NCBI GenBank assembly: GCA_964291315.2
Contig: OZ219753.1
Coordinates: forward strand, 1,888,001-1,952,000
DNA length: 64,000 nucleotides
Origin: Candidatus Poribacteria bacterium
Lineage (GTDB): Bacteria; Poribacteria; WGA-4E; WGA-3G
Reading direction: 5' to 3'
Shown here: positions 1 to 20,130 of the stretch, piece by piece
Layout of the letters: every line of letters starts with the position of its first letter
How positions within the stretch are numbered: position 1 is the stretch's first letter
The notes under the pieces: generated by a model
Database searches by the model: none
What the model saw: the letters and a program-made list of their open reading frames with translations, nothing else
What the model was told of the DNA's origin: nothing
Position numbers and translations under genes: made by a program

Positions 1-1
1 C

Positions 2-895
2 GAAGGTATGATCTCCGCACTCCTCGCAATCATTAACCCCAGCGACGAAATTATCATCTTTGAACCTTTTTATGAAAACTACGGGCCAGATACAATTATC
101 TCTGGGGCAACACCCGTCTATGTCGCATTGCAAGAAACAACCGCAGCTGATGGCACTATCCGTTTTACCTATGATGATGCCGAACTTCAAGCAGCTTTCT
201 CTCCCAACACAAAGGCAATTGTCATAAACACGCCTAACAATCCACTCGGTAAGGTATTCACCATAGATGAACTTCAGCAAATCGCCGACCTCTGCTGTGA
301 ATACGACTGCCTCGCTATAACTGACGAGATATACGAACACATGATCTATGATGAAAAACCGCATACCAGCATCGGGGCTCTCCCGCAAATGCAAGATCGC
401 ACAATCACGGTGTCAGGTTTGAGCAAAGCCTATTCGATGACAGGATGGCGATTAGGATACGTCATCGCACCAGAAGTTTTAACCAACGGTATCCGTAAAA
501 TGCATGACTTCCTCACTGTCGGAGCACCGCATCCACTCCAACACGCTGGAACCGTTGCACTTAATTTGCCAACAAGTTACCACCAAGATCTGGTCGCCAA
601 ATATGACAAAAATCGCAAACGTCTCCTAGCGAGTCTCACGCAAGCAGGATTTCAATGCCACCAACCTGAAGGCGCTTATTATATCATGACAGATATTGCT
701 GCCTTTGGCTTTTCGAATGATACAACCTTTGCACACTGGTTGGTGAAGGAAATTGGTGTAGGCGGCGTACCAGGATCCAGTTTCTATAGGCATTCACACC
801 TCGGCAAAACAAAACTCCGATTTATGTTTAGCATAGCGGACAATATTCTCGAAGAAGCAGCAGAACGGTTGATACAGATCAAAACCAAAATCTAA
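2..895 (+). CDS. PLP-dependent aminotransferase class I/II, 5'-truncated by window edge
   Basis: Frame open from base 2; motifs NTPNNPLGK, DEIYEH, SKAYSMTGWRLGY (PLP lysine). Confidence 0.92.
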   Translation, partial: EGMISALLAIINPSDEIIIFEPFYENYGPDTIISGATPVYVALQETTAADGTIRFTYDDAELQAAFSPNTKAIVINTPNNPLGKVFTIDELQQIADLCCEYDCLAITDEIYEHMIYDEKPHTSIGALPQMQDRTITVSGLSKAYSMTGWRLGYVIAPEVLTNGIRKMHDFLTVGAPHPLQHAGTVALNLPTSYHQDLVAKYDKNRKRLLASLTQAGFQCHQPEGAYYIMTDIAAFGFSNDTTFAHWLVKEIGVGGVPGSSFYRHSHLGKTKLRFMFSIADNILEEAAERLIQIKTKI

Positions 896-960
896 AAATA
901 GGATGTATACAGCACCGGTTCCCCGTTCGCAATTTTTAGACACACTAGAGAGGCACTAAT

Positions 961-1167
961 ATGGATATTTCCCTTGAAAATGAGACACGAAACATCTACA
1001 GAAAAGAAATTCAGTCACTTATTCAGCAAGAAAAAAAGTATAGAACCCTCAATACTGACGACCTTGAGGCAATTGTGAAAACGTTCGAATTTACGCTAAC
1101 AAACGGGCGAGAGAAAGTTCGAGCCCAGATGATTCACGACCTCATTCACGAAAAGAGAGACACCTGA
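961..1167 (+). CDS. small hypothetical protein (68 aa), coupled to downstream SMC-like ATPase
   Basis: GAGAGG RBS upstream; stop codon 1 nt before next ATG. Confidence 0.7.
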   Translation: MDISLENETRNIYRKEIQSLIQQEKKYRTLNTDDLEAIVKTFEFTLTNGREKVRAQMIHDLIHEKRDT

Positions 1168-6873: not shown

Positions 6874-7641
6874 ATGGATTACCTCAAACATTTAACCCTC
6901 CTCTTTTTTTTCATAGGATGCCTTGGCGCAAATGGAGAGGCCACTTCTCTTGTTGAGAGCAGCCGAACCTCTCCGCAACCCTTACGCCTTGGTGAAAAAT
7001 TAACCTATAATATTAGTTGGAAAAAATTACCCGCAGGAAAAAGAACAGATTGGATCGCTGAAACATTGACGCTCAACGGCGAGTCTGTCTATCATATCCG
7101 ATCTGAAATGAAGACACGCGCACTCTTCAGATTCTATAGCTTCCAAAGCCAGCAAGAAACATATTTTAATCCTACTACTCTCGCCCCCATCCAATTTCGG
7201 AATCATCTACAAGATCGCAAATTTCGCGCCACCGTCGCAATCGACTTCCGAGACGGTGAAGCACAATACAAAAGAATTTCACAGCAAAATCCGAAATCAA
7301 TTCAAAAACGCGAGGCGAAAACACTTAACATACCAATCGGGGCACAAGATGAACTATCAACCATCTACTTTCTACGTTCTAAACAACTTGTGATCGGTAA
7401 GACCTATTTCTTTCCTGTCGTCGTGAAAGGAAACGTCCAAAAAGTTACACTCACCGTCGAACGCAAAGAGGTTATTAAGACCAAGACATTAGGAACTATC
7501 AGAACGCTCGTTCTGCGCACCTCACAAGGCGACCTTTTCTGGCTTACAGATGATGAACGGCGGTTACCTGTCAAAATGGAAGCCAAAAGCAAAATCGGAA
7601 GGTTCAAAGCCACATTAGCAGATATCGAATTCGAAAATTAA
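6874..7641 (+). CDS. DUF3108-like exported protein
   Basis: GEKLTYNISW, QDELSTIYFLR, WLTDDERRLPVK motifs; signal peptide. Confidence 0.75.
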   Translation: MDYLKHLTLLFFFIGCLGANGEATSLVESSRTSPQPLRLGEKLTYNISWKKLPAGKRTDWIAETLTLNGESVYHIRSEMKTRALFRFYSFQSQQETYFNPTTLAPIQFRNHLQDRKFRATVAIDFRDGEAQYKRISQQNPKSIQKREAKTLNIPIGAQDELSTIYFLRSKQLVIGKTYFFPVVVKGNVQKVTLTVERKEVIKTKTLGTIRTLVLRTSQGDLFWLTDDERRLPVKMEAKSKIGRFKATLADIEFEN

Positions 7642-7750: not shown

Positions 7751-10700
7751 GTGATAGACCTTTTACGCAATATAGATAATTATCAAATACTTGTATCACG
7801 CCTCAAAGAGGGTAAAAAACTCCCATGGATCAGAGGACTGGTGAACGCATCTACTGCCTACCTTCTAGCAACATTGATTGACGATTTTCCAGAAAGATCC
7901 TTCCTAATTTTGCTCCCCTCACAGCGTGAAGCCGAACAAATACTCGAAGAAATCTGTACATATCGCGCATATCCCACGCTAGAGAGCACCCCCACACCTA
8001 ACGCCTATCCTGAACTTAATTTCTTTCCAGGATGGCACCGCAAATTCGTTGAAGGGGTCGCACCCTCCAAAAACATCACCACCGACAGAATGCGATGCCT
8101 CGACCGTTTGCTGCGTCAAGAACGGACCGTTATTGTCACAACAAGTCAAGCCCTACTCTATAAGCTGCCCTCACGCAAGCACCTCGCCGCCGCCTGCCGC
8201 ATCCTTAAACTCGGGGATGAAACCGATCCCGACACCATCGCCCTTGCCCTCAGGCGCGGCGGATACCAGAACGTTGAACTTGTAGAAGTCAAAGGACAAT
8301 TCGCACGCAGAACAGATATCTTGGACGTGTTTCCACTCACCGCGGACGCACCTGTACGGATCGACTTTTTCGGCGATGAAGTTGATGCTATCCGCACTTT
8401 TGACCCTATGTCGCAACGTTCAACAGAACCTCTCGAATCCGTCACACTCACACCGATCCGAGAAATCTTTGCAGTTGATCCATCAATAGATTATTGGCAG
8501 GCACAAACCGACACCGTCATTCAGCAACACCCCAACCCCAAACTCCTAAACACCGTCCGAGAGATCACAAAACATCTAACGGAAAGCATATCGTCCGGTT
8601 ATGGTCTCGCTGCCGGAGGATTAAACACTGAACTCGGCACGTTCTTACCGATGCTCACCCCGGAAGTCGATAGCCTCACAGACTACCTACACGACGATAC
8701 AATCATTTGCACGATCGAACCACAGTGGCAGAAACGGGATGCAATGCAACTTCACGAAAAAACACAAGAAGTGGTTCAACAAAAACTTGAGGAATCTCAT
8801 TTTGTCGCGCCAGCAGACAAACTCTTAATCCCATTTGAAACGATCGCAGCACAAATAGAAGACTATCCTGTTATCTCCTTCTCTTTAGCACCTCCGCGTG
8901 AGATCTCACACAATGAATTGGCACCGCTGCCTTTTGAAATGAAACCACTCGCCCTGCCATCAGGAAACTATCAAACCGTTATCAATCAAATCAAAACCTG
9001 GAGACAAGAACAAAATAGAGTCCATCTTTTCTGCGAAACACCGCAGCAGTCTAAGCGGGTCTCTGAAATCCTAGCCGAACGCGGATTATTAGATATTAAC
9101 ATCAGTATAGGAGCAATTAGCCAAGGCTTTCTCCACGAATCATTAAACCTCGTCGTTATCTCCGAAGATGAGCTCTTCGGAAATCGACACCACCGTTCAA
9201 TCCGGCGGCGTCCACCAGCAGATGGAACACCCTTACTGAGCCTAATGGACCTAAAGGCTGGAGACTATGTGGTCCACGTCTCTCACGGTATCGCTGTTTA
9301 TGACGGTATCCGCCGATTGGATATTGACGGTAAATCACAGGATTTCCTGGTTCTCAAATACAGTGCAGACGATATTCTCTATGTCCCTACCTATCAGGTT
9401 GATCTGGTTCAGAAGTATATCGGTAGCAAGGAGGAAACATATAAACCGCGCCTTGACCGCCTCGGTGTCCCCGCATGGCACCGCCGAAAAGAACGAGTCA
9501 AAGCCTCAATACAAGAAATGGCCGATGAACTCCTCAACTTGTACGCACTCCGACAAGCACGCAAAGGATATCCTTTCCCATCTGAAGTCCCGTGGCAAAC
9601 CGAGTTCGAAGCCCTCTTTCCATATCAAGAAACCGACGATCAACTCCAAGCCATCGAGGACGTTAAAGCAGACATGGAAAGTGAACAACCAATGGATAGA
9701 CTCGTCTGTGGTGACGTCGGATATGGGAAAACTGAAGTCGCTCTCCGAGCTGCCTTCAAAGCCGTTATGTCAGAAAAACAGGTTGCCGTTCTGGTTCCAA
9801 CAACCATTCTCGCACTTCAACACTACGATACCTTTGAAAAACGTTTCCAGGCTTTTCCTGTCCATGTTGAAATGCTAAACCGTTTTCGAACACCGAAGGA
9901 AATAAAGCAGATTAAGGAAAGATTGGCAAAAGGCACTGTTGATGTCGTGATCGGAACCCATAGCTTGCTCTCAAAAACCGTAACGTTTGACAACCTCGGC
10001 CTCCTAATCGTTGACGAAGAACACCGTTTTGGCGTTAAACACAAGGAAAAAATCAAACAATTTAAAGAGACCATTGACGTACTTACATTGACAGCTACAC
10101 CGATCCCACGAACGCTCCACATGTCGCTTGTCGGTATCCGGGATTTCAGTGTTATCAATACCCCACCCGCAGACCGCTTACCAATTCAAACCTATGTGAT
10201 GCCCTACGACACCGAGATCATCCGGGAAGCTGTCACCGCGGAATTAAGCCGCGGCGGACAAGTGTTTTTTGTTCACAATCGCGTGCAGGATATCCAAAGC
10301 ATTGCCCTAACCGTACAGCAACTCGTTCCTGAAGCACGGGTTGCTGTCGCACACGGACAAATGCCAGAACGTGAACTAGAAAACGTTATGCTTGAGTTTG
10401 TCCGACACAAACACGACATCCTCGTCTGCACTATGATTATTGAATCTGGGCTCGATATACCCAACGTTAACACAATCCTGATTAACCGAGCAGATGCCCT
10501 CGGTTTGGCACAACTCTATCAGCTACGAGGACGTGTTGGCAGGGCAACCGCACAAGCTTACGGCTATCTGTTTTACCCACAGAACCACGCAATTACCGAA
10601 GAAGCAGAAAGAAGACTACGAGTCATCGAAGAATTCACTGACCTCGGCTCAGGCTTTAAAATAGCTCTCCGCGACCTTGAAATTCGCGGCACAGGAAATA

Positions 10701-11251
10701 TCCTCGGAGCAGAACAACACGGGCATATTGTTACCATCGGTTATGAACTTTATTGCAAGCTCCTCGAAGAAGCTGTCATGGAACTCAAGGGCGAAAAAAT
10801 TGAGAAGACTCTCGAAACACGAATCACTTTGCCCATCGAAGCCTATCTGCCCGATAATTATGTGCCAGATAGCCGGCAGAAAGTCTCTATCTACAAAAAA
10901 ATCGCTAGATTGAAAAACGATGAAGGCCTCCAAGAACTCCGCGCAGAACTGCAAGACCGCTACGGCTCTATCCCTGAACCGGTTGAAATGTTGCTTGAAA
11001 TCGCCGACCTGAAGAAAATCAGCAACTGCCTCGGTATTACCGCCATTGTTGCTGGACGCGAACAGGTAAAAGTCACCTTTGATGAGAAAAACCCCAAAAT
11101 TAATCTGAAGAAATTCATTGAAACTGTACACAAAAATAAGAACCTTCAGCTGCAACCGCCAGCACAACTCAAAATCCGGATGCACGGAATGACTGGGGCA
11201 AATATGTTAACTGAATTGCAGCAAACCCTGAAATTGTTTGTGGATATGTAA
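7751..11251 (+). CDS. mfd: transcription-repair coupling factor Mfd
   Basis: UvrB-like N-terminus, RID (GDYVVHVSHG), CGDVGYGKTEVA, DEEHRFG, QLRGRVGR, TRCF C-terminus. Confidence 0.97.
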   Translation: MIDLLRNIDNYQILVSRLKEGKKLPWIRGLVNASTAYLLATLIDDFPERSFLILLPSQREAEQILEEICTYRAYPTLESTPTPNAYPELNFFPGWHRKFVEGVAPSKNITTDRMRCLDRLLRQERTVIVTTSQALLYKLPSRKHLAAACRILKLGDETDPDTIALALRRGGYQNVELVEVKGQFARRTDILDVFPLTADAPVRIDFFGDEVDAIRTFDPMSQRSTEPLESVTLTPIREIFAVDPSIDYWQAQTDTVIQQHPNPKLLNTVREITKHLTESISSGYGLAAGGLNTELGTFLPMLTPEVDSLTDYLHDDTIICTIEPQWQKRDAMQLHEKTQEVVQQKLEESHFVAPADKLLIPFETIAAQIEDYPVISFSLAPPREISHNELAPLPFEMKPLALPSGNYQTVINQIKTWRQEQNRVHLFCETPQQSKRVSEILAERGLLDINISIGAISQGFLHESLNLVVISEDELFGNRHHRSIRRRPPADGTPLLSLMDLKAGDYVVHVSHGIAVYDGIRRLDIDGKSQDFLVLKYSADDILYVPTYQVDLVQKYIGSKEETYKPRLDRLGVPAWHRRKERVKASIQEMADELLNLYALRQARKGYPFPSEVPWQTEFEALFPYQETDDQLQAIEDVKADMESEQPMDRLVCGDVGYGKTEVALRAAFKAVMSEKQVAVLVPTTILALQHYDTFEKRFQAFPVHVEMLNRFRTPKEIKQIKERLAKGTVDVVIGTHSLLSKTVTFDNLGLLIVDEEHRFGVKHKEKIKQFKETIDVLTLTATPIPRTLHMSLVGIRDFSVINTPPADRLPIQTYVMPYDTEIIREAVTAELSRGGQVFFVHNRVQDIQSIALTVQQLVPEARVAVAHGQMPERELENVMLEFVRHKHDILVCTMIIESGLDIPNVNTILINRADALGLAQLYQLRGRVGRATAQAYGYLFYPQNHAITEEAERRLRVIEEFTDLGSGFKIALRDLEIRGTGNILGAEQHGHIVTIGYELYCKLLEEAVMELKGEKIEKTLETRITLPIEAYLPDNYVPDSRQKVSIYKKIARLKNDEGLQELRAELQDRYGSIPEPVEMLLEIADLKKISNCLGITAIVAGREQVKVTFDEKNPKINLKKFIETVHKNKNLQLQPPAQLKIRMHGMTGANMLTELQQTLKLFVDM

Positions 11252-11353
11252 CCAAAGATCTTCGACCACCGGTTAAAGAGGCTTTTGATGATCACAAGCC
11301 CCTTAACTGATAACCGATAAACAATAGCTGATAACTGAAAGGAAAATTATCAC

Positions 11354-12325
11354 ATGAAAAAAACGATTACTGTTTTTGTAATTGTTGCTGTGACATGCCT
11401 ACTCACATGGCGATACGTTCAGTCTGACGGCCAGGAACAATCCATGGCCGCTGTGGATGAAAGCCACCTGATTTTGGCAACATACACATGGAACGGTGAA
11501 ATGTATCAAATCTCACTGGCACAACTAAACGCCGCAATCGCAGAATTACCCACTTACCGGCAGCGGAACTATCAAAACCGAGCGGACAAAGCCGAGTATC
11601 TTGAGGAATTAATAGATGAACGCCTCAAAATCCACCGCGCTACCGACGACAATTTCGATGTGCTTCCCGAGCACCTTCAGAAACTCGAAGATTACACACA
11701 CCAACTCATGGTTGAAAAATTAACCGAGACTGAAGTCGATGCCAAAGTTGTCTATACTGACGAAGAACTCATGGCACATTATCAAGCAAACCTCAGCGAG
11801 TACGTTGAGGACGCAAAGGCCCGCGCAACTTGTATCTCACTCGATGATGAGACGCTTGCCTACGAAACGCTCGATGCTATTAAGGCAGGAAAAGACATCA
11901 TCGAGATGGCCAAAGAGCTCTCCGAAGCAGGGAAACTTGCCCCCGGCCCCGGCAGCACCGACTCCGAGGACCCCGGCAATACTTACTTTTTCACGAAAAC
12001 CGCTTCTGCACGCTGGTCCGAATTCATTGACGCTGTTTTCGCTCAAGAAGTCGGCGAAATGACAGACACTATCTTTGAAACCGAAGTTAACGATACAGTC
12101 TTCTACCTCATATTCCGGAAAGAGGAGTATCAACCGCAACGTCAGAAGGAATTTGACGAGGTTAAAGATGATGTCCAACGCACCGTTGAACGCGAAAAGA
12201 AACGAGCACGCATCAATCAATGGGTCACAGAAATCTCTGAAAAAGGTAAGTTGAAAACCTATCCTGAAAACATTCCAGAACCACCGCAACCTCAGGAAGC
12301 GGAAACCCAGGAGTCAGACGAGTAG
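11354..12325 (+). CDS. PrsA/SurA-like parvulin-type chaperone
   Basis: N-terminal signal/anchor, SurA_N-like helices, parvulin-like segment (FIDAVFAQEVGEMT), KEFDEVKDDV. Confidence 0.75.
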   Translation: MKKTITVFVIVAVTCLLTWRYVQSDGQEQSMAAVDESHLILATYTWNGEMYQISLAQLNAAIAELPTYRQRNYQNRADKAEYLEELIDERLKIHRATDDNFDVLPEHLQKLEDYTHQLMVEKLTETEVDAKVVYTDEELMAHYQANLSEYVEDAKARATCISLDDETLAYETLDAIKAGKDIIEMAKELSEAGKLAPGPGSTDSEDPGNTYFFTKTASARWSEFIDAVFAQEVGEMTDTIFETEVNDTVFYLIFRKEEYQPQRQKEFDEVKDDVQRTVEREKKRARINQWVTEISEKGKLKTYPENIPEPPQPQEAETQESDE

Positions 12326-12394
12326 CCATTCCCATTTTGTGGAAGCAACCCCTTAGCCATAGTACTAAGTGGATAAAAGGAGCTAGAATTAAAA

Positions 12395-13456
12395 ATGTTC
12401 ACAGAAATTATCTCTCCTATCAACAAGAGGGAGGGCCGGAATCTCCATAGCGATCGACGTATCGGGCAAAAACGACTTCCGGTTATCCCCCTACTTTTAA
12501 TCGCGGTCATTGCTATACACCCCGTCTTCTATAGCTGTGGAGACAAAGCAATCGGAGCAGACGGCACGGTCATCGCAGAGTTCGAATGGAACGGCAAACA
12601 GCGCATCACTCTCGAAGAAATGATGCAGGAAATTAGCGAACTCCCAGAATATAAACAACGCCAATATCAGGACAAAGAGGGACTCGAAACTTACATGCTC
12701 CTCATGGCAGAAAGCCGCCTGATTCTAAACCTCGCTCGCGACCAAAAACTCAACGAAGACACCGAAATTCTCAAAAAGGTCCAAGATTATCTTCATGAGC
12801 TAATGGTTAAGAAAATTACCGCACAAGAAGTTGATGATAAACTCGTCTTAACTGAAGAAGACTACCTCCAGTACTACGAGGCGAATAAGGCAGAACACGT
12901 CCGCCCAGCACAAGTCAGACTCATGTGCATCACACTTACAAATAAAGAACGGGCAGACGAAACTTATGCCCAAATTAAAGAAGGCGGAGACATCGCAGTA
13001 CTTGCACAAGAACTATCTGATAAGGGCGAACTCGTCGGGCCCGGCGCGAACCCAGCCAGTCCCGGGGACACCGACTACATTAGCAGGGAATCCTTTCCAT
13101 CCGGCACTGAACCTTTTTTGGATGCTGCTTTCTCTGCAGAAATCGGAGCACTACATGAAGGTGTTATCGAAGTTGATGTCCAAGGACAAAAATACTATAT
13201 GATGTTCCGGAAAGATGAAGCTCGGGATGCTTACCAGAAGCCTTTTGAGGATGAAGACGTCCGTAGAAATGTAGTGCGGAAAGTTGAACGCGAGAAGCGA
13301 GAGGCACTCATGGAAGAATGGATCCACCAGCTCCGCAATCGCGCCGAAGTTAAAACCTACATCGAGCGCATCCCAGAAGCCCCCGCTGAAGAGGAAGCAA
13401 CCGAGGAACCACCTGAAACCGAGGAAACCCCCACTGAGGGCCAACCTGAAGAATAG
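12395..13456 (+). CDS. PrsA/SurA-like parvulin-type chaperone, paralog of upstream gene
   Basis: Same architecture; possible lipobox FYSC; FLDAAFSAEIG; acidic tail. Confidence 0.75.
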   Translation: MFTEIISPINKREGRNLHSDRRIGQKRLPVIPLLLIAVIAIHPVFYSCGDKAIGADGTVIAEFEWNGKQRITLEEMMQEISELPEYKQRQYQDKEGLETYMLLMAESRLILNLARDQKLNEDTEILKKVQDYLHELMVKKITAQEVDDKLVLTEEDYLQYYEANKAEHVRPAQVRLMCITLTNKERADETYAQIKEGGDIAVLAQELSDKGELVGPGANPASPGDTDYISRESFPSGTEPFLDAAFSAEIGALHEGVIEVDVQGQKYYMMFRKDEARDAYQKPFEDEDVRRNVVRKVEREKREALMEEWIHQLRNRAEVKTYIERIPEAPAEEEATEEPPETEETPTEGQPEE

Positions 13457-13598
13457 CAATTCATGGCGATTGGCAGTTCGCTACTACAGATTGGAAACCA
13501 CCAGGCCGTAAGAGAAGGCTATTTATCAGAAATCTCTTTAACCAATACTCATTTTGCTAATTGCCAATCGCTATTTATCCCAAATAGGAAGTGTAGAC

Positions 13599-14903
13599 AT
13601 GATTCACCGTATACCTGTCTATCCCTTTATCTGTCTCTTACTTATTGTCAGCGGATTCACCCCGGCTACTGCTCGTACCTTCGATAAAATCATCGCTTAT
13701 GTCAATGACGATATTGTAACCAAGCGAGAAATTGATACCCTAGTCAACCAACGCGCAATAGAGCTCCAGCAGGTTTACCGTTTCACCGAACGCGAGGCAC
13801 GCACCGAAGCCGAACGACAACGCGCTGAACTCCTCGACCGCCTTATCCGTCAAATGCTGCTTTTAGAAGCCGCATTAACACTGCAACTCACTGTCAGTGA
13901 CGCAGAAGTAGAACAATACGTACAAGAATTTAAAAAGAGATACCAGATTGAAACTGACGAAGCGTTTAAGGAGCAGCTAAATAGAGAAGGAATGACTATC
14001 ATCGCTTTTCGTGAACAAGCAGAACGGAACCTTAAAGCCGAAAAACTTGTTATGGGACGAATTGTCCCCCGATTGCAGGTCCGAGAAAGTGAAATACAAC
14101 AATTTTTTGAGGAAAATCGGGATCAATTACCAGTTAAAGCAGACAAAATCCATCTGCGACACATCTTTATCGCATTTCAACCAACCGACGCTGACCGAAA
14201 TGCCGCTAACGCTAAAGTCAGCAAAGCCCGCAATGAAATATCAGCAGACAACGCTAATTTCGAGGAAATAGCAAAACGTTATACCGCAAAGCAAAACTCA
14301 ACCTCCCAAGCCGGAATCCTCATCGAAGCCACAACGGAAGAACTAAGTAAGTTTCCACAGATATTTCAGAACGTGCTGACGAATTTAGAGGCAGGCGAAA
14401 TCAGTGAACCAATTGAAGGTAATGAAGGACTCTACCTTTTTAAAGTCGAAACAAAGCATAAGCAGATGATTAGCTTCCGCTACCTCATTGTACCGCTTGA
14501 AATTAGCACGGAAGCGATACAGGCAGCGCGCGAACGGAGTGTCGAGGTTTTCAAAAAATTGGAAAACGAGGAAGACTTTAATACACTCGTTGTAACCTAC
14601 TCTGACGACGCAGAAACGCGCGGAAACGCAGGGGACCTTGGAGTCCGATCCCTTACCGAACTCAATCCAAAAACCCGTAAAATCGTTGAACCACTCGCAT
14701 CCGGGGCACATAGCAGTCCACATGAAACCGACTCCGGACTCCACATCTTCAAGGTTGATGAACGAAATACACCCGAGCTCAGCGAAGCCGAAAAGCAACA
14801 GATCACTGCTATCCTCCGACAGCAACGTTTTCAAGAAGAATGGGACGCATACACCGACAGCCTCATCGGGAACGCTTATATCCAAATTAAATTGAAAGAG
14901 TAA
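13599..14903 (+). CDS. surA: SurA-like chaperone/PPIase
   Basis: DKIIAYVNDDIVT SurA N-terminus; two parvulin domains (HLRHIFI, AGDLG, GLHIFKV); start placed at ATG 13599. Confidence 0.85.
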   Translation: MIHRIPVYPFICLLLIVSGFTPATARTFDKIIAYVNDDIVTKREIDTLVNQRAIELQQVYRFTEREARTEAERQRAELLDRLIRQMLLLEAALTLQLTVSDAEVEQYVQEFKKRYQIETDEAFKEQLNREGMTIIAFREQAERNLKAEKLVMGRIVPRLQVRESEIQQFFEENRDQLPVKADKIHLRHIFIAFQPTDADRNAANAKVSKARNEISADNANFEEIAKRYTAKQNSTSQAGILIEATTEELSKFPQIFQNVLTNLEAGEISEPIEGNEGLYLFKVETKHKQMISFRYLIVPLEISTEAIQAARERSVEVFKKLENEEDFNTLVVTYSDDAETRGNAGDLGVRSLTELNPKTRKIVEPLASGAHSSPHETDSGLHIFKVDERNTPELSEAEKQQITAILRQQRFQEEWDAYTDSLIGNAYIQIKLKE

Positions 14904-14910
14904 GAAATAC

Positions 14911-17900
14911 GTGAAAAAAAGCCAGTCCGATCTGTCTACCTATTACCAACAGCCCTCTCGAAAAAAAAGGCACGCAGGGACAGGAAACAAGGCATCGCGC
15001 CGACTTCTCACGCTTGCTAACCCGCCCTCAATCGCCGTCATAGCATTCGGCATTTTTACCATTTTTTTATACCTCCTTTGGCCCTTACAACCGCTGGGCG
15101 CCCAAGACACACCACCACAAGAACAAGTACCTGCTGATGCAAAAACACCGAATGCTCCAGATAGCGAGCCAGACGAAGATACCCCCACTGAACGCCTGAA
15201 CCCAGAAACAGATGTTCCTGAAGAAGGAACCGTAATCGGTGACGGGGACAATGTATCAATGCTAGATAATTTTGTTCAAATTCACGGCAACGCCCTCGTC
15301 AAATATGGAGACGTCATTCTGCAAGCCGACCACATCTGGGCCGACTTCGACGATAACTTGATGCGCGCCTCAGGCAACGTTCGCCTCAAAATCGGTGACG
15401 AAGAAACCTACTCCGATGAACTCGTCTTCAATCTCGAAACAAAAAAAGGAATCGCCAGAAATGGATTTACCTACAGCGACCCTTGGTACTTTGGCGGCAG
15501 CGAAATCTTTAAAATAGAAGAAGATAAATCTTACGTCCGCGGAGCAACACTCACAACCTGTTCACTCGAACACCCGCACTACTACTTCAGCGTTTCCGAA
15601 GTGATCGTCCGAGTCAATCAAGAGTTGATTGCTAAGAACATTGTGCTACGCATTGGCGGATTTCCGCTCTTCTATTTTCCAGCTATTCGCCGGGACCTAC
15701 GAAAAGGAAAAATTGCCAAGATTATCGTCAAAGTCGGCACAGATAGTTACCAGGGCCCCTACATCAGTATTATCCAGCCGCTTGCCCGCAAACGGCGCTA
15801 TGATGCAGCACTCCTTTACGATAGAAGCGCACGACGCGGGCAAGGTTTCGGGATCGAGGGAAAGTACCGCTTTCGAGACACCCAATTTAAAGAGATACAT
15901 ATCCCTATCCCGCCCGATGCAACACCAAACCAACGCACTAAATTAGAAGAGAAAGCAAACGAATTACAAGACCGACTTGACGGTAAATATGATCGCTATT
16001 GGCTGAAGCAGCTCTTCCTCGAATATAAAATCACCGATGCCGACATTGATAGCGCCAGAAAGCGCGCCGAAGAAATCCATACACAGACCTTAGCGGAGAA
16101 CTCAAACTTTCCACAACTCGCCCAAAGCAATTCCGACCACTCCGAAACCCGTTACGAAGGCGGAGACATCGGGTTCCTCGTGCCCGGAGAAACCGATAAA
16201 GATGGCAACCCCAAACTTAACGCTGCCCTAGAGACAGCCGCATTCACATTGCAAGAAGGTGAAATTAGCCCCGTTATACAAACAGAATCGGCTTTCCATA
16301 TCCTCAAAGCCGATCAGGTGGTTGACATTTACGGCGAACGTGAGGTTAGACTTCGCCGCATTGACATCAATATTACCGCAAGCAACGAAACCAAAACGAT
16401 GCTCCGTGAACTAGCAGATGACCTGCTACAACGTGCTCACGAAGGCCAACCCTTTGAGGAACTTCTGCAACGCGCTAATACCCTCTCTGATTTTGTTCAA
16501 GCCACCTTGTCTGAGGTCAATCAAAAACAAGGACTGCCCCTAAATGAGATGGATTCCTCTTGGCAGTACTCCATCAGACGTATGGAAAACCCCGGCGATG
16601 TTACTGAACGCCGCCCCGTTTCCACACCTGAAGGACTGTACATCTTCCAATTAATTAAGAAAGAGGAAACACCCACTTTTGAAATCCTCGCCGAGGAATT
16701 TCAAGCAGAATGGCAGACGTTTTACGAAAACATTATGAATCCAGTCCCAGAGGACGATGAAAAAAATACCGATACACAAAAATCCGAGGATGGAGATGCA
16801 GAAGAAGCCGATGTGACACCCGATGAACCGGAACAAGGACATGTATCTGACACCGCGCAGGCAACTGAAAATGCAAAAAAAACAGAGGCAACTGCACCGG
16901 AAAGTGAGGCCAACGAAAAGAGACAACCCACAAAAACGACTATGCTAGAAAATAATCCAGAACCGGAGACAGAAAACGAAAATGTCATTTCTGCCGACGC
17001 AAACAAGAAAGAGACAGAAACCGAAGAACAGGTCTACAGACAACACGACTTTCGTGGAAGATGGGAAGACCCAAGCCCCGTGGCATCCGAAGCACAAACT
17101 TTATATACGGGGGAACACAGCCGCCGCCCAATTAAAACAAAAAGAGCGTTTCGTCTTATCAAAGTCGATAAAAAACGAGCATACCGCGGGGATCTCTACC
17201 TTTACGGCGCAGACCGCTATTCTTACGAACGGCAGAACGCCACACGAATCGGCAGAAGCTGGATTATGCGATGGGCCCATACCCAATCCTTCTTTACACC
17301 ATGGGATAGCCGAGAAGCCGGCAGACGACCCATTAGCTTCAACGGACGCACAGAATTACGAGCCCTAAATTATAAAGAAGAACTACAACTCCCCGGCGAA
17401 TCTACGCTCAACTCGTTCGGCATACTTACCTACGGCACCGCCTTCTCCGCCTACAGTCCAAACGACCTTGACGATAATGGCAATCTCAGGTTTTCGCGGG
17501 AAACCATCGGAGATTTCACAGGCAGAATCGAAGCTCGACACATTCACGACTTCACGGGCGAAGGCACAGTCTCATTGCAGAAACTCCCACAACTTACTTT
17601 AAACTTCTCGCGAGTGCGGCTAAGCGCCTTCCCGCTCTTTGAAACCCTTAACGACACTATGGTTTCTGCCGCAGAAAAACTCAAAACTGACACCCCATTT
17701 CTCTCAATGTTTACAGTACCAACCCTCGAAAGCACCAGCCTCGATTTAGATATTGAGCTCGGAAACTTCTTTAGAGAAGTCTTTAACGGTAAAGCCGGCG
17801 AAGAAAGAGATGTATTTCTGCAAACAATGGACCTCGGGTTTGATGTACGCAAACAGTCAACCCTCCTTATCGCCCCGCTCCGTGAACTCCAGCTCAGCCT

Positions 17901-18861
17901 CTACTTCAACACAAACGCCATTTGGCACGACCGAGATCAAGACCAAAATAGAAACATTCTCCGCGGCGTTTATAGCATCAACGGAACCCTTACCAACACC
18001 CTCTTTCGCATCTTCAACATAAGCTATCTCCCCGGGTTGACGAAACTGCGCCACGAAATGCAATCATCGCTCCGATTTGATTATCAACCCCCGGTGGATG
18101 AGAATGATAACCTCTACCCCTTCGGACCCAGCACCTATTTCTTTGAAAGAAAGAGACTAACTTATAACTTCAACACAAGTATCGAAATTAAAACCCGACG
18201 GAGCCAGTCGCCGCACAGAGTCTTATATTTTGATACACGCCTTACCGCCGATTTTACTGACTTTGATCCATTATATAGACGCAAGTACGAACCCATCGAG
18301 AGTGACTTTACTTTTATACCACTCCCCAGTCGAAATCTGAACGTCACTATCCGATTTACACATGATCCAAACCCACATCCCGTGGACCAAAAGACCTTCA
18401 AAATGGTCGGGTTCCGTTCCAATATACGCTATACGCGCCAGGCCTGGAACGTAAGCCTCGGAAGCTCTTTTAGTAAACGGCATACCTCAAGGCAAGCCTC
18501 CCGTTCTATTACCGCTAACGGACGTTATCGCGTCAATCGGAACCTTGAATTTGATGTCAATCTCATCTACTACCCGCTTGAAAGACAGTTTTATTCACAA
18601 CGCATTATGATGACACGGAATCTTCACGATTGGAATTTACGAATATCATGGAACCGCATCGGCCTTAAACGCGAAGACTCACCTTACAACAACGTCCGTC
18701 AGGATTTCACATTTCAAGTTAGCCTGATTCAGGAACCCGCGATCTCGATGGGCGCAGGGTACGATGCCACCACCGAAACCTGGGGCATCCGCACCTTGCC
18801 CGCAGGCATGCCCTACAACGCCTTCGGCGTCGGCAACTCGCTCGGCAGATCCTATTTCTAA
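14911..18861 (+). CDS. lptD: LptD-like outer-membrane protein with inserted parvulin domains
   Basis: OstA-like N-terminal jellyroll (LQADHIW, ASGNVRL, TTCSLEHPHY, PLFYFP) and C-terminal beta-strands (RNLHDWNLRISW); ~435-aa insertion. Confidence 0.75.
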   Translation: MKKSQSDLSTYYQQPSRKKRHAGTGNKASRRLLTLANPPSIAVIAFGIFTIFLYLLWPLQPLGAQDTPPQEQVPADAKTPNAPDSEPDEDTPTERLNPETDVPEEGTVIGDGDNVSMLDNFVQIHGNALVKYGDVILQADHIWADFDDNLMRASGNVRLKIGDEETYSDELVFNLETKKGIARNGFTYSDPWYFGGSEIFKIEEDKSYVRGATLTTCSLEHPHYYFSVSEVIVRVNQELIAKNIVLRIGGFPLFYFPAIRRDLRKGKIAKIIVKVGTDSYQGPYISIIQPLARKRRYDAALLYDRSARRGQGFGIEGKYRFRDTQFKEIHIPIPPDATPNQRTKLEEKANELQDRLDGKYDRYWLKQLFLEYKITDADIDSARKRAEEIHTQTLAENSNFPQLAQSNSDHSETRYEGGDIGFLVPGETDKDGNPKLNAALETAAFTLQEGEISPVIQTESAFHILKADQVVDIYGEREVRLRRIDINITASNETKTMLRELADDLLQRAHEGQPFEELLQRANTLSDFVQATLSEVNQKQGLPLNEMDSSWQYSIRRMENPGDVTERRPVSTPEGLYIFQLIKKEETPTFEILAEEFQAEWQTFYENIMNPVPEDDEKNTDTQKSEDGDAEEADVTPDEPEQGHVSDTAQATENAKKTEATAPESEANEKRQPTKTTMLENNPEPETENENVISADANKKETETEEQVYRQHDFRGRWEDPSPVASEAQTLYTGEHSRRPIKTKRAFRLIKVDKKRAYRGDLYLYGADRYSYERQNATRIGRSWIMRWAHTQSFFTPWDSREAGRRPISFNGRTELRALNYKEELQLPGESTLNSFGILTYGTAFSAYSPNDLDDNGNLRFSRETIGDFTGRIEARHIHDFTGEGTVSLQKLPQLTLNFSRVRLSAFPLFETLNDTMVSAAEKLKTDTPFLSMFTVPTLESTSLDLDIELGNFFREVFNGKAGEERDVFLQTMDLGFDVRKQSTLLIAPLRELQLSLYFNTNAIWHDRDQDQNRNILRGVYSINGTLTNTLFRIFNISYLPGLTKLRHEMQSSLRFDYQPPVDENDNLYPFGPSTYFFERKRLTYNFNTSIEIKTRRSQSPHRVLYFDTRLTADFTDFDPLYRRKYEPIESDFTFIPLPSRNLNVTIRFTHDPNPHPVDQKTFKMVGFRSNIRYTRQAWNVSLGSSFSKRHTSRQASRSITANGRYRVNRNLEFDVNLIYYPLERQFYSQRIMMTRNLHDWNLRISWNRIGLKREDSPYNNVRQDFTFQVSLIQEPAISMGAGYDATTETWGIRTLPAGMPYNAFGVGNSLGRSYF

Positions 18862-18927
18862 TAGAACCGCACCCAACCCCTACATAGGTATGAATAGAGA
18901 AAACTTGGATACCAAATTCTCTGATTA

Positions 18928-20130
18928 TTACCCAATCTCATTGATCGTAATCAGTTGATCGTCCAAGCTCCTATCCGGGCGCGGCAAGTCCCCAAACAAC
19001 GGACGGAAGTAACCCGCACCTGCCGGCGAAATCTGATAGCGTCCAGCATCGTAGAACCGCAGATCTAAACTTCTCCGAATGACATGTCCAGACGTATCAC
19101 GCTTCAACACCTGTCCCAACGGCAGCAAAGTCGGCTCAATGCCAGTATCCGTCCGCGTAATAGTCGCAACCCCGTTGAACATGCCATCTGAGAGCGCCTG
19201 CACCGCAAGAGCACCAGCTTTCATCGCAGCGTCCCTATCTAGCGGAATCGGACTACCGCACCGTTGCAGATAACCCAGAATCAACGCACGGAACGCTGAA
19301 CTCGAAATTCCGGGCAGACGTTTTTTCATCGCCTCAACGATAATCTCGGAACATCCACCCGGTTTTGTATGGCCAAAAGCATCGAGCTCCGCTTGCGAAC
19401 TAATCATCAATTCCCCCGCATCGTTCCGAATACCTTCCGATACAACAACAATCACGTTGCCCCGCTCAGCGTGTTTCTCGCGAATAGCTTCCGCTAACCT
19501 ATCCGGCTGATACGGTATCTCCGGCACAACAATCAAGTCCGCCTGACCGTAGGCTGCAGATAACGTCAACCAACCAGCATCACGTCCCATCGCCTCAACA
19601 ACAATCACTCGATCGTGAGAGTAGGTAGTCGTCCGTAAGTCGCGAACCGCATTGATAACGCTCTGCGCCGATGATGGAAAACCAGGACAGAAATAGTTGA
19701 CCATCTTAGAGTAATCAACCGCATCCCCCTCCGGCGGATTTATACCCACATCGTTGTCAATCGTTTTGGTTACAAAGGTGGTCGTAAATTGATCCGACAG
19801 AGCCGTCCCAACTGTTAAAGTATCATCGCCCCCGATTGGAATAAGACCACTGATGCCCAATTTTTTCAGGTTGCTCACTGCTTCATCTAACTTATTATCT
19901 TTAATTAGATTCGTGCGAGAGCTCTTCAGCAGCGTCCCGCCACGGTTTTCATCAATCAGATCCGGAGACAACGTAAAGTAGCGGCCACCTTTCAGAACGC
20001 CGCGCCACCCCTCCATGAATCCAACCAATTCAAAACCGAGTTCTTCCGCTTTTAAGGCAATACCTTTAAGTGTAGCGTTCAACGCACTCGTATCACCTCC
20101 GCCCGTTAAAACCCCGATCTTTTTGAGCAT
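18928..20130 (-). CDS. phosphofructokinase, probably PPi-dependent
   Basis: LTGGGD, GGTLLKSSR, GGDDT, KTIDND, EAMGRDAGW, LGYLQRCG. Confidence 0.9.
   Translation of the reverse strand: MLKKIGVLTGGGDTSALNATLKGIALKAEELGFELVGFMEGWRGVLKGGRYFTLSPDLIDENRGGTLLKSSRTNLIKDNKLDEAVSNLKKLGISGLIPIGGDDTLTVGTALSDQFTTTFVTKTIDNDVGINPPEGDAVDYSKMVNYFCPGFPSSAQSVINAVRDLRTTTYSHDRVIVVEAMGRDAGWLTLSAAYGQADLIVVPEIPYQPDRLAEAIREKHAERGNVIVVVSEGIRNDAGELMISSQAELDAFGHTKPGGCSEIIVEAMKKRLPGISSSAFRALILGYLQRCGSPIPLDRDAAMKAGALAVQALSDGMFNGVATITRTDTGIEPTLLPLGQVLKRDTSGHVIRRSLDLRFYDAGRYQISPAGAGYFRPLFGDLPRPDRSLDDQLITINEIG

Follow-up and report, generated by a model that had tools for sequence, protein, structure and literature searches.

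Nested parvulin domains in a predicted periplasmic turn of the LptD translocon of Candidatus Poribacteria

Introduction

What could a set of parvulin domains do inside the barrel of an outer-membrane translocon? This question is raised by one gene of a Candidatus Poribacteria genome, found at 14911-18861 on the + strand of a 64,000-nucleotide stretch (hereafter the window) of contig OZ219753.1. A first-pass annotation had described the product as an LptD-like translocon with parvulin domains inserted within its barrel. We find that this gene almost certainly encodes the LptD of Poribacteria, in which the Lpt lipopolysaccharide bridge ends at the outer membrane, with this insert architecture; the fold models, Pfam and a family profile all bear out the parvulins within an LptD-like barrel. 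LptD is an essential protein, a drug target and the hardest outer-membrane protein (OMP) to assemble, and its assembly in model bacteria depends on SurA, on LptE and on a rearrangement of its disulfides. The parts of the Poribacteria protein are ordinary and their combination is unusual. The annotation did not recognise the architecture as described, and no paper on an LptD with parvulin domains was returned by our full-text literature search, which covered listings and abstracts, subscription journals and supplements lying outside it.

Results

An LptD-type jellyroll and barrel

Translation of 14911-18861 meets no internal stop and base composition along the gene is even. Its product, in amino acids (aa), is laid out as follows.

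14911..18861, + strand: whole gene, LptD orthologue with parvulin insert; GTG start, 1316 aa, single open frame
14911..15240, + strand: N-terminal region, aa 1-110; basic start, hydrophobic segment to ...PLGAQ and a Pro/Asp/Glu-rich linker, probably signal peptide and spacer
15271..15696, + strand: LptA/LptC/OstA-type β-jellyroll, aa 121-262; ten modelled strands
15724..15876, + strand: barrel strands β1-β4, aa 272-322; DSSP strands of the model
15877..17178, + strand: nested parvulin insert, aa 323-756, about 434 aa; from models, Pfam and a family hidden Markov model (HMM)
17179..18726, + strand: barrel strands β5-β26, aa 757-1272; 22 modelled strands
18727..18858, + strand: conserved C-terminal tail, aa 1273-1316; GYD..W..LP..PY.AF...LGRSYF, predicted local distance difference test (pLDDT) <50

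The protein was modelled over aa 120-1316 from a 59-row alignment, with an overall pLDDT of 76 and a predicted template modelling score (pTM) of 0.59; here and below, fold assignments are taken from residue ranges, aligned lengths and strand lists, not from coordinates or predicted aligned error. Among solved chains, Foldseek placed LptD first (4q35_A, E 1.3e-19; 8h1r, 9rpr, 9ia0, 5iv9 and 7omm, E <= 2e-13), 8h1r_D and 9rpr_A being among the top matches of the full model. With VIA, the top 29 entries were all LptD chains or models, at Z 16.7-19.8 and with 385-616 aligned residues spanning the insert. Full-length LptD chains aligned from model residue 1-3 to about 1155 and barrel-only chains over model 148..1158 (Z 17.6-19.5), the start of the latter, at model residues 148-154, corresponding to E. 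coli/Shigella residues 224-231; for 4rhb_A, model 153..1158 matched chain 230..762 (Z 18.5, 453 aligned). The jellyroll resembled LptA 2r1a_H (Z 13.3, 110 aligned, root-mean-square deviation (rmsd) 2.3) and LptH 4uu4 (Z 13.2).

At the level of sequence, a single-sequence phmmer search of solved chains with aa 111-338 found no LptD, giving chance matches at E 0.7 or worse. LptD came into view there with a profile search: against PDB sequences the family profile retrieved LptD first (8h1r_A, E 4.9e-22; 7omm_A, E 1e-18), then SurA (E 3e-16). The NCBIfam LptD model PRK04423 matched aa 111-336 on model positions 63-291 of 799 (E 1.1e-8), and the CT351 barrel family of chlamydiae matched more weakly. 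Parvulin (Rotamase) was the sole Pfam family seen on the whole open reading frame (ORF), and the N-terminal 330 aa and C-terminal 576 aa scanned alone gave no family at E <= 10. The protein Atlas neighbours were the family's own clusters (0.98-0.99) and then LptD clusters (0.82), which are leads only. The genome that was searched (4.4 Mb, 4 contigs, 95.2 % complete) also holds LptF/LptG, as well as LptA-like frames.

Position of the insert

Strand order in the model, by DSSP, is ten jellyroll strands, four barrel strands (aa 272-278, 282-293, 297-306 and 310-332), the insert and 22 further barrel strands, which makes 26 barrel strands. In the LptD nomenclature, according to the available text of PMC4353691, the strands are β1-26, the extracellular loops L1-13 and the periplasmic turns T1-12, with T12 between β24 and β25 and the jellyroll in the periplasm. 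Since four strands precede the insert and 22 follow it, the published numbering puts it at β4-β5, that is, in periplasmic turn T2. In the N. gonorrhoeae LptD 7omm_A, profile positions 302 and 629 fall on residues 313 and 329; one short turn of about 15 residues stands there in place of the entire insert. On the strand count of the model and the alignment to solved barrels, the insert very probably lies on the periplasmic side. The first-pass annotation had proposed a periplasmic turn as well, and its limits of 15874-17180 agree with ours; of the motifs that it quoted, all of them present, GFGIEGKYRF lies in β4 (aa 310-332) and YRGDLYLY is where barrel strands resume.

Two parvulins nested in a third

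The insert was also modelled alone (aa 322-757, 55-row alignment), reaching pLDDT 80.5 and pTM 0.64, with ordered blocks at about 84-97 and disorder over model residues 294-383. Pfam Rotamase (PF00639) matches aa 375-468 at E 6.1e-22, with 78.8 bits for a cut-off of 21.7, and three Rotamase stretches appear when the insert is scanned by itself. In Foldseek it is matched best by parvulin chaperones (8hm4_B, E 3e-10; PpiD 8zht_A, E 1.8e-5; SurA 1m5y_B, E 4.4e-4), and the resemblance is well outside the range of chance. In VIA, two-parvulin chains align to insert model 37-267 (8hm3_B, Z 16.0, 206 aligned), and the corresponding comparison of full model 241-468 with 8hm3_B, a two-parvulin peptidyl-prolyl isomerase (PPIase), gives Z 16.1; SurA 1m5y_D reaches Z 13.2 and single PPIase domains overall Z 10.5-13.2. 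These single domains (Pin1, PrsA) span insert model 1..433 or 1..436 with 87-97 residues aligned, Pin1 residues 53-163 doing so at Z 11.3 (96 aligned, rmsd 2.3). A domain of about 110 residues can span 1..433 only if the insert opens with its first strand and helix and closes with its remainder, and we therefore consider the outer parvulin to be split. Three parvulins had been read in succession by the first-pass annotation; all three exist, but they are not simply consecutive, the third being discontinuous and enclosing the other two.

15877..15978, + strand: outer parvulin N-fragment, aa 323-356; β1 continuous with barrel β4, then α1
15994..16329, + strand: inner parvulin P1, aa 362-473; Rotamase E 6.1e-22, family HMM E 5.5e-37
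16336..16665, + strand: inner parvulin P2, aa 476-585, ending GLYIFQL; family HMM E 1.4e-31
16678..16737, + strand: outer parvulin helix α2, aa 590-609; helix in both models, aligning with the F..LA..YS helix of relatives
16738..17034, + strand: acidic disordered loop within the outer parvulin, aa 610-708; pLDDT <50, D/E 30/99
17035..17178, + strand: outer parvulin C-fragment, aa 709-756; β2, α4, β3-β4, the last strand continuous with barrel β5

P1 superposes closely on PrsA 5tvl_C (Z 12.5, rmsd 1.2, 85 aligned), P2 has lost its GGD motif in this lineage, and the third parvulin ends in AFRLIKV (aa 746-752). The order predicted by the model is barrel β4, outer β1-α1, P1, P2, outer α2, the loop, β2, α4, β3-β4 and barrel β5. 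The strands aa 310-332 and 746-770 are each long and pass from the barrel into the parvulin sheet; a module held in this manner would be rigidly attached.

The nesting can be followed by sequence in relatives of the protein, using a parvulin HMM built from the inner domains of seven diverse family members. In P0128, P0130 and L012 it finds an N-fragment (about positions 3-37, E 0.07-0.2), two whole domains and a C-fragment. The N-fragment match is weak and occurs in four of the six LptD tested (P0122, P0128, P0130 and L012), the window protein and P0124 having none. The C-fragment, positions 36-103, reaches E 1e-10 to 1e-13 in P0124, P0128, P0130 and L012; P0124 shows the two whole domains as well, and P0122 has weak outer-fragment matches only (E 0.08 and 0.68). 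In the window protein the outer fragments are barely visible by sequence (HMM E 0.05), yet they are modelled with high confidence.

The acidic loop, which has no tandem repeat, is 75-180 aa long in 45 close-clade sequences and 9 aa long in ten distant relatives. Logan contigs of three public runs, all from one study and the best holder of which may be the source sample, break or branch in every case within 16738-17034, suggesting strain-level variation of the loop in length or sequence.

Conservation across the phylum

A word-indexed search returned 361 homologous proteins. Among the 120 matches listed, lengths are 1187-1441 aa and identities 69-100 %, and the named members are Candidatus Poribacteria entries called 'peptidylprolyl isomerase' or 'hypothetical protein'. 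Searching 1.84 billion cluster representatives by HMMER with the C-terminal 576 aa gave 36 proteins at E <= 0.001, from which 16, the longer ones, were chosen for a Pfam scan. Six of them carry Rotamase and no LptD model (P0122, P0124, P0128, P0130, P0142 and P0150), and the other ten match LptD_2 (E 3e-10 to 1.1e-69, with PF04453 too in eight) and no Rotamase at E <= 0.01. From this split we consider the barrel to be of a diverged LptD_2 type, in which the insert marks one clade. All named insert-bearing members of the clade are Candidatus Poribacteria (P0124, P0150, L012).

The gene is present in 121 of 121 genomes sampled evenly from the phylum, covering 19 of 19 genera and 8 families; frames among the rows listed for this sample measure 1125-1450 aa, and many of the genomes are single-contig. 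All three parts of the gene (N-terminal, insert and barrel) occur in each of the five most distant genomes, as one frame of 1120-1319 aa in four of them and spread over two contigs in the fifth. The parvulins are conserved about equally to the barrel. The three-parvulin T2 module is maintained by selection phylum-wide.

That the insert-bearing gene could be an assembly chimera or a dead gene has its unusual length in its favour, and the breaks of Logan contigs within the acidic low-complexity stretch (16736-16817), which is tiled by short overlapping pieces. Contigs break nowhere else, and both junctions are bridged in the three runs without joints, indels or loose ends, two adapter-like tails being the exceptions. 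At the 5' junction the contigs cover 15600-16765 (run X1), 15653-16045 (X2) and 15600-16433 (X3, which we take for another strain because of its 22 substitutions), and at the 3' junction 16788-17500, 16786-17500 and 16979-17435, respectively. The absence of internal stops, the 361 homologous proteins and the same architecture in one open frame in all 121 genomes also speak against such an origin, whose probability we regard as negligible. An assembly chimera was rejected on the phylum-wide single frame together with the junction-bridging contigs.

In deep-branching relatives the domains are more canonical, showing GGDLG motifs and, in some, the first catalytic histidine. These relatives also carry a fourth parvulin in another turn, T5 (L012:6782-10567, aa 746-893; P0130, aa 771-917), and in genomes G002, G004 and G006 an extra parvulin match falls between query aa 933 and 936. 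The window protein has at this site:

17632..17712, + strand: helical segment in turn T5 (β10-β11), aa 908-934; two short helices in the model

In the fourth parvulin, HMM positions 28-102 precede positions 2-38; it looks circularly permuted, or else would be followed by a partial copy.

Catalytic residues and relation to SurA

Catalytic positions were assigned by aligning the neighbouring SurA and PrsA, and also lean on what we take to be the catalytic residues of Pin1; counts are over 55 aligned sequences. The first histidine of P1 is replaced by Gln in 49/55. In P2 the histidine positions hold Arg (49/55) and Tyr (53/55), and the last-strand histidine of the outer parvulin is Arg in 53/55. 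In P1 itself the Ser-x-x-His of the last strand is kept in 45/55, and the S-D motif retains its Asp in 50/55. Judging from these residues, the parvulin module is probably non-catalytic in the main.

SurA_N, SurA_N_2 and SurA_N_3 were all sought in the whole ORF (E <= 1) and in pieces of it (E <= 10) and none was found; the neighbouring surA gene matches all three. In the parts of PMC3747590 that are available, SurA owes its chaperone activity to the N+C core, its parvulins having none of their own, its PPIase activity can be dispensed with, and LptD depends strongly on SurA; the accessible text of PMC11366764 assigns contact with the β-barrel assembly machinery (BAM) to the N-terminal residues of the core. 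With this literature and with no SurA_N core found, the insert resembles the accessory half of SurA and not its working core. The 'built-in chaperone' of the first-pass annotation consequently does not hold as stated, as the insert consists of parvulin domains only and their histidines are mostly replaced; chaperone-like binding of clients by these parvulins is possible. By BLASTP the inner tandem is colinear with P1-P2 of the neighbouring SurA. In L012 the alignment covers 230 aa at 31 % identity (E 2e-22); in the window it covers 275 aa at 21 % identity (E 5e-9).

C-terminal tail, cysteine and LptE

The C-terminal tail, ending ...GRSYF (or ...SMYY), is 42-44 aa long in all five full-length insert-bearing proteins; insert-less LptD_2 proteins end in 14-18 aa and none of four has a long tail. 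This comparison comes from alignment A2, with two truncated rows lacking the C-terminus left out. The tail is the best-conserved region, with 82/61/52/41 % identity to P0122/P0124/P0128/P0130 as against 53/43/35/27 % for the barrel. A complex prediction of the insert with the tail, made with no controls, scored 0.00 for a mark of 0.32 and is uninformative.

The protein has a single cysteine, C217, so that the inter-domain disulfides of proteobacterial LptD are absent. In enterobacterial LptD two T12 disulfides hold the jellyroll, one of them essential, and this is described as a proteobacterial-type feature in the portion of PMC4353691 at hand; it does not define the LptD family as a whole. 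A search with a single LptE model (PF04390) gave no match at E <= 0.1 in the 95.2 %-complete genome, while control genomes were matched.

Gene neighbourhood

Three parvulin-type genes, two with Rotamase_2 and a complete surA, form a run between mfd and lptD:

7751-11251, + strand: mfd, upstream of the parvulin-type genes
11354-12325 and 12395-13456, + strand: two parvulin-type genes; Rotamase_2 E 3.6e-8 and 5.5e-9
13554-14903, + strand: surA, 449 aa; SurA_N_3 E 1.9e-15, Rotamase E 1.5e-31; core and two parvulins

surA ends 8 bases 5' of the lptD ORF. The two had been cited as neighbouring genes in Proteobacteria; surA is the immediate neighbour in the window too, here upstream. The order mfd - parvulin gene - surA - lptD is retained in deep-branching L012, and a SurA-like frame stands directly 5' of the gene in G002, G004 and G006. 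On the 3' side lies a convergent phosphofructokinase gene. A promoter and terminator scan of 11000-19200 gave counts below those of shuffles (3 vs 8.6 and 10 vs 12.3) and is uninformative on operon structure. Further 5', beyond mfd, are a DUF3108 protein (6874-7641, E 7.5e-34), a DUF5683-like protein and an fn3-containing protein.

Discussion

Poribacteria LptD and proteobacterial LptD (4q35, 4rhb, 5iv9, 8h1r, 7omm) share an LptA-like jellyroll followed by a 26-strand barrel, and superpose with VIA Z 18-20 over 440-616 aligned residues, yet at 10-15 % identity. The former differs by its T2 module of about 434 aa, its one cysteine, an undetected LptE and the additional 44-aa tail. Its nearest insert-less barrel relatives are LptD_2 proteins (P0148, whose cluster is named candidate division TA06, P0145 and P0155; E 1e-8 to 9e-4), in which the jellyroll and β1-β4 are alignable. 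These proteins are distinguished by a length of 669-1169 aa, by Rotamase in 0/10 at E <= 0.01 and by their short C-terminal ends. On the other side, P1-P2 superpose as a unit on SurA (1m5y) and on 8hm3/8hm4 (Z 15-16, 206-209 aligned), the latter presumably from Bacteroides fragilis given the 'BfUbb' of their title. What sets the tandem apart from that of SurA is its place inside a third parvulin, which in turn sits in a membrane barrel. The N+C core, to which the consulted portions of PMC3747590 and PMC11366764 attribute client holding and BamA docking, is absent from the insert. All three insert domains have the fold common to the single parvulins PrsA, PpiD and Pin1, from which they differ by the loss of most histidines and by the splitting of one domain through a domain insertion and a disordered loop.

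What the module does is less certain than what it is. The explanation that we mildly favour overall is a Poribacteria LptD with a periplasmic, mainly non-enzymatic scaffold or binding module. Such a module would form a folded scaffold or peptide-binding platform at the translocon rim, next to both the jellyroll and the β1/β26 seam. The outer parvulin, as a fast-folding soluble domain, could pre-form the β4-β5 hairpin in register. In E. coli, the N-terminal part of LptD is assembled last on BAM. While the other 22 strands are being built by BAM, the module with its tandem might keep order in this last-assembled part (jellyroll plus β1-β4); in the finished protein it might brace the jellyroll, no disulfide lock being present and LptE being undetected. 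We advance only tentatively that the module acts in this way in cis, on the assembly or stability of LptD itself; offered in support of this brace are the single cysteine, the lack of an LptE match and a tail exclusive to insert-bearing proteins. It is doubtful that module and tail together form a self-contained folding and quality-control unit which replaces SurA dependence, the LptE plug and the disulfide checkpoint. If this were true, no barrel protein before it would be known to template one of its own hairpins from a soluble domain.

The parvulin array could instead work in trans, a widened form of the chaperone idea of the first-pass annotation: by its binding of unfolded OMPs, free SurA or BAM, the translocon would double as a SurA-like holdase or hand-over site anchored in the outer membrane. 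The colinearity of the inner tandem with the P1-P2 of the adjacent SurA (E 2e-22 in L012, E 5e-9 in the window) would fit such a dock, as would its superposition as a unit on 8hm3_B (Z 16.0, 206 aligned), the structure of SurA P1 solved in complex with aromatic peptides (2pv1_A, which matches the insert at Z 12.7) and the run of three parvulin-type chaperone genes that the gene adjoins. However, the ORF has no SurA core, which in E. coli is the seat of both chaperone activity and BAM contact as far as the available texts of PMC3747590 and PMC11366764 go, and with a complete free SurA encoded next door there is no evident need for another general chaperone; we consider this dock unlikely. An active prolyl isomerase at the translocon, serving LptD's own prolines or passing envelope proteins, seems the least likely of these functions. 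P1 gives a strong Rotamase match (E 6.1e-22) and largely keeps its Ser-x-x-His (45/55) and S-D Asp (50/55), and deep-branching relatives have GGDLG motifs and sometimes the first histidine, but P1 has Gln for this residue in 49/55, P2 and the outer parvulin are without both histidines in most sequences, and PPIase activity is dispensable even in SurA, according to what could be consulted of PMC3747590.

A further proposal is that one or several parvulin domains, or the tail, fold into the lumen of the 26-strand barrel as a plug or gate in place of LptE. No LptE match was obtained at E <= 0.1 where control genomes were matched, the 44-aa tail is exclusive to insert-bearing proteins and is their most conserved part, and a parvulin is a small α/β domain, probably smaller than LptE. 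Against this, the outer parvulin would be fixed on the rim as the continuation of β4/β5, with no long tether, and the tail is modelled at pLDDT <50; moreover, the insert-less LptD_2 relatives also come from phyla in which LptE is hard to detect. Such a plug is quite improbable in our view, and we return to the rim scaffold as the preferred reading.

Several observations weigh against this reading or against parts of it. Curated models fall short of confirming the LptD identity: PF19838 (LptD_2) stays below threshold on the ORF (17746-18114, 19.8 bits for a cut-off of 22.5), PF04453 (LptD) has no match in the ORF or in the 4.4 Mb genome, and PF03968 (LptD_N) misses the ORF and matches at other loci only. 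Relatives do pass PF19838, L012 with 35.9 bits and several homologues in the precomputed list, and since PF04453 is found nowhere and PF19838 at this ORF only, the ORF is the sole LptD candidate in the genome. The quality of the full model is moderate. The first histidine of P1 is retained in 4/55 and the second in 45/55, which leaves room for catalysis, and histidine counts overstate their independence because 42 of the 55 sequences are close relatives (58-73 % identity over the insert). The tree of 16 parvulin domains has 1 of 13 branches supported; with this lack of support and with an offset alignment of the tandem to SurA scoring nearly equal, descent of the tandem from the adjacent surA is possible. 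Finally, LptE sequences diverge fast and one Pfam model was used, so the LptE blank is weak evidence.

As a separate observation, the PF03968 matches are two 322-aa frames on different contigs with the same score of 28.7 bits (L002 and L003; G000:C1:649474-649701 and G000:C4:3243781-3244008), which could be either a gene duplicate or the same region assembled twice.

The checks proposed with the first reading, a domain scan and structure prediction, a survey of homologs and an examination for chimerism, have given a Rotamase fold in the insert, an LptD-type barrel in the C-terminus (29 LptD entries at the top of VIA and the profile match to 8h1r_A at E 4.9e-22), the insertion in 121/121 phylum genomes and, on reads-derived contigs, both junctions bridged.

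As the labels 'peptidylprolyl isomerase' and 'hypothetical protein' are in use and curated models miss the family, automated surveys may score Poribacteria as being without LptD. The protein offers a clean case of domain-in-domain-in-barrel insertion, where a barrel β-hairpin continues as core strands of a soluble fold. It is of clear interest for outer-membrane biogenesis: a parvulin fusion throughout a phylum, with the cysteines dropped and no recognisable LptE, amounts to a natural experiment on the roles of the helpers of LptD.

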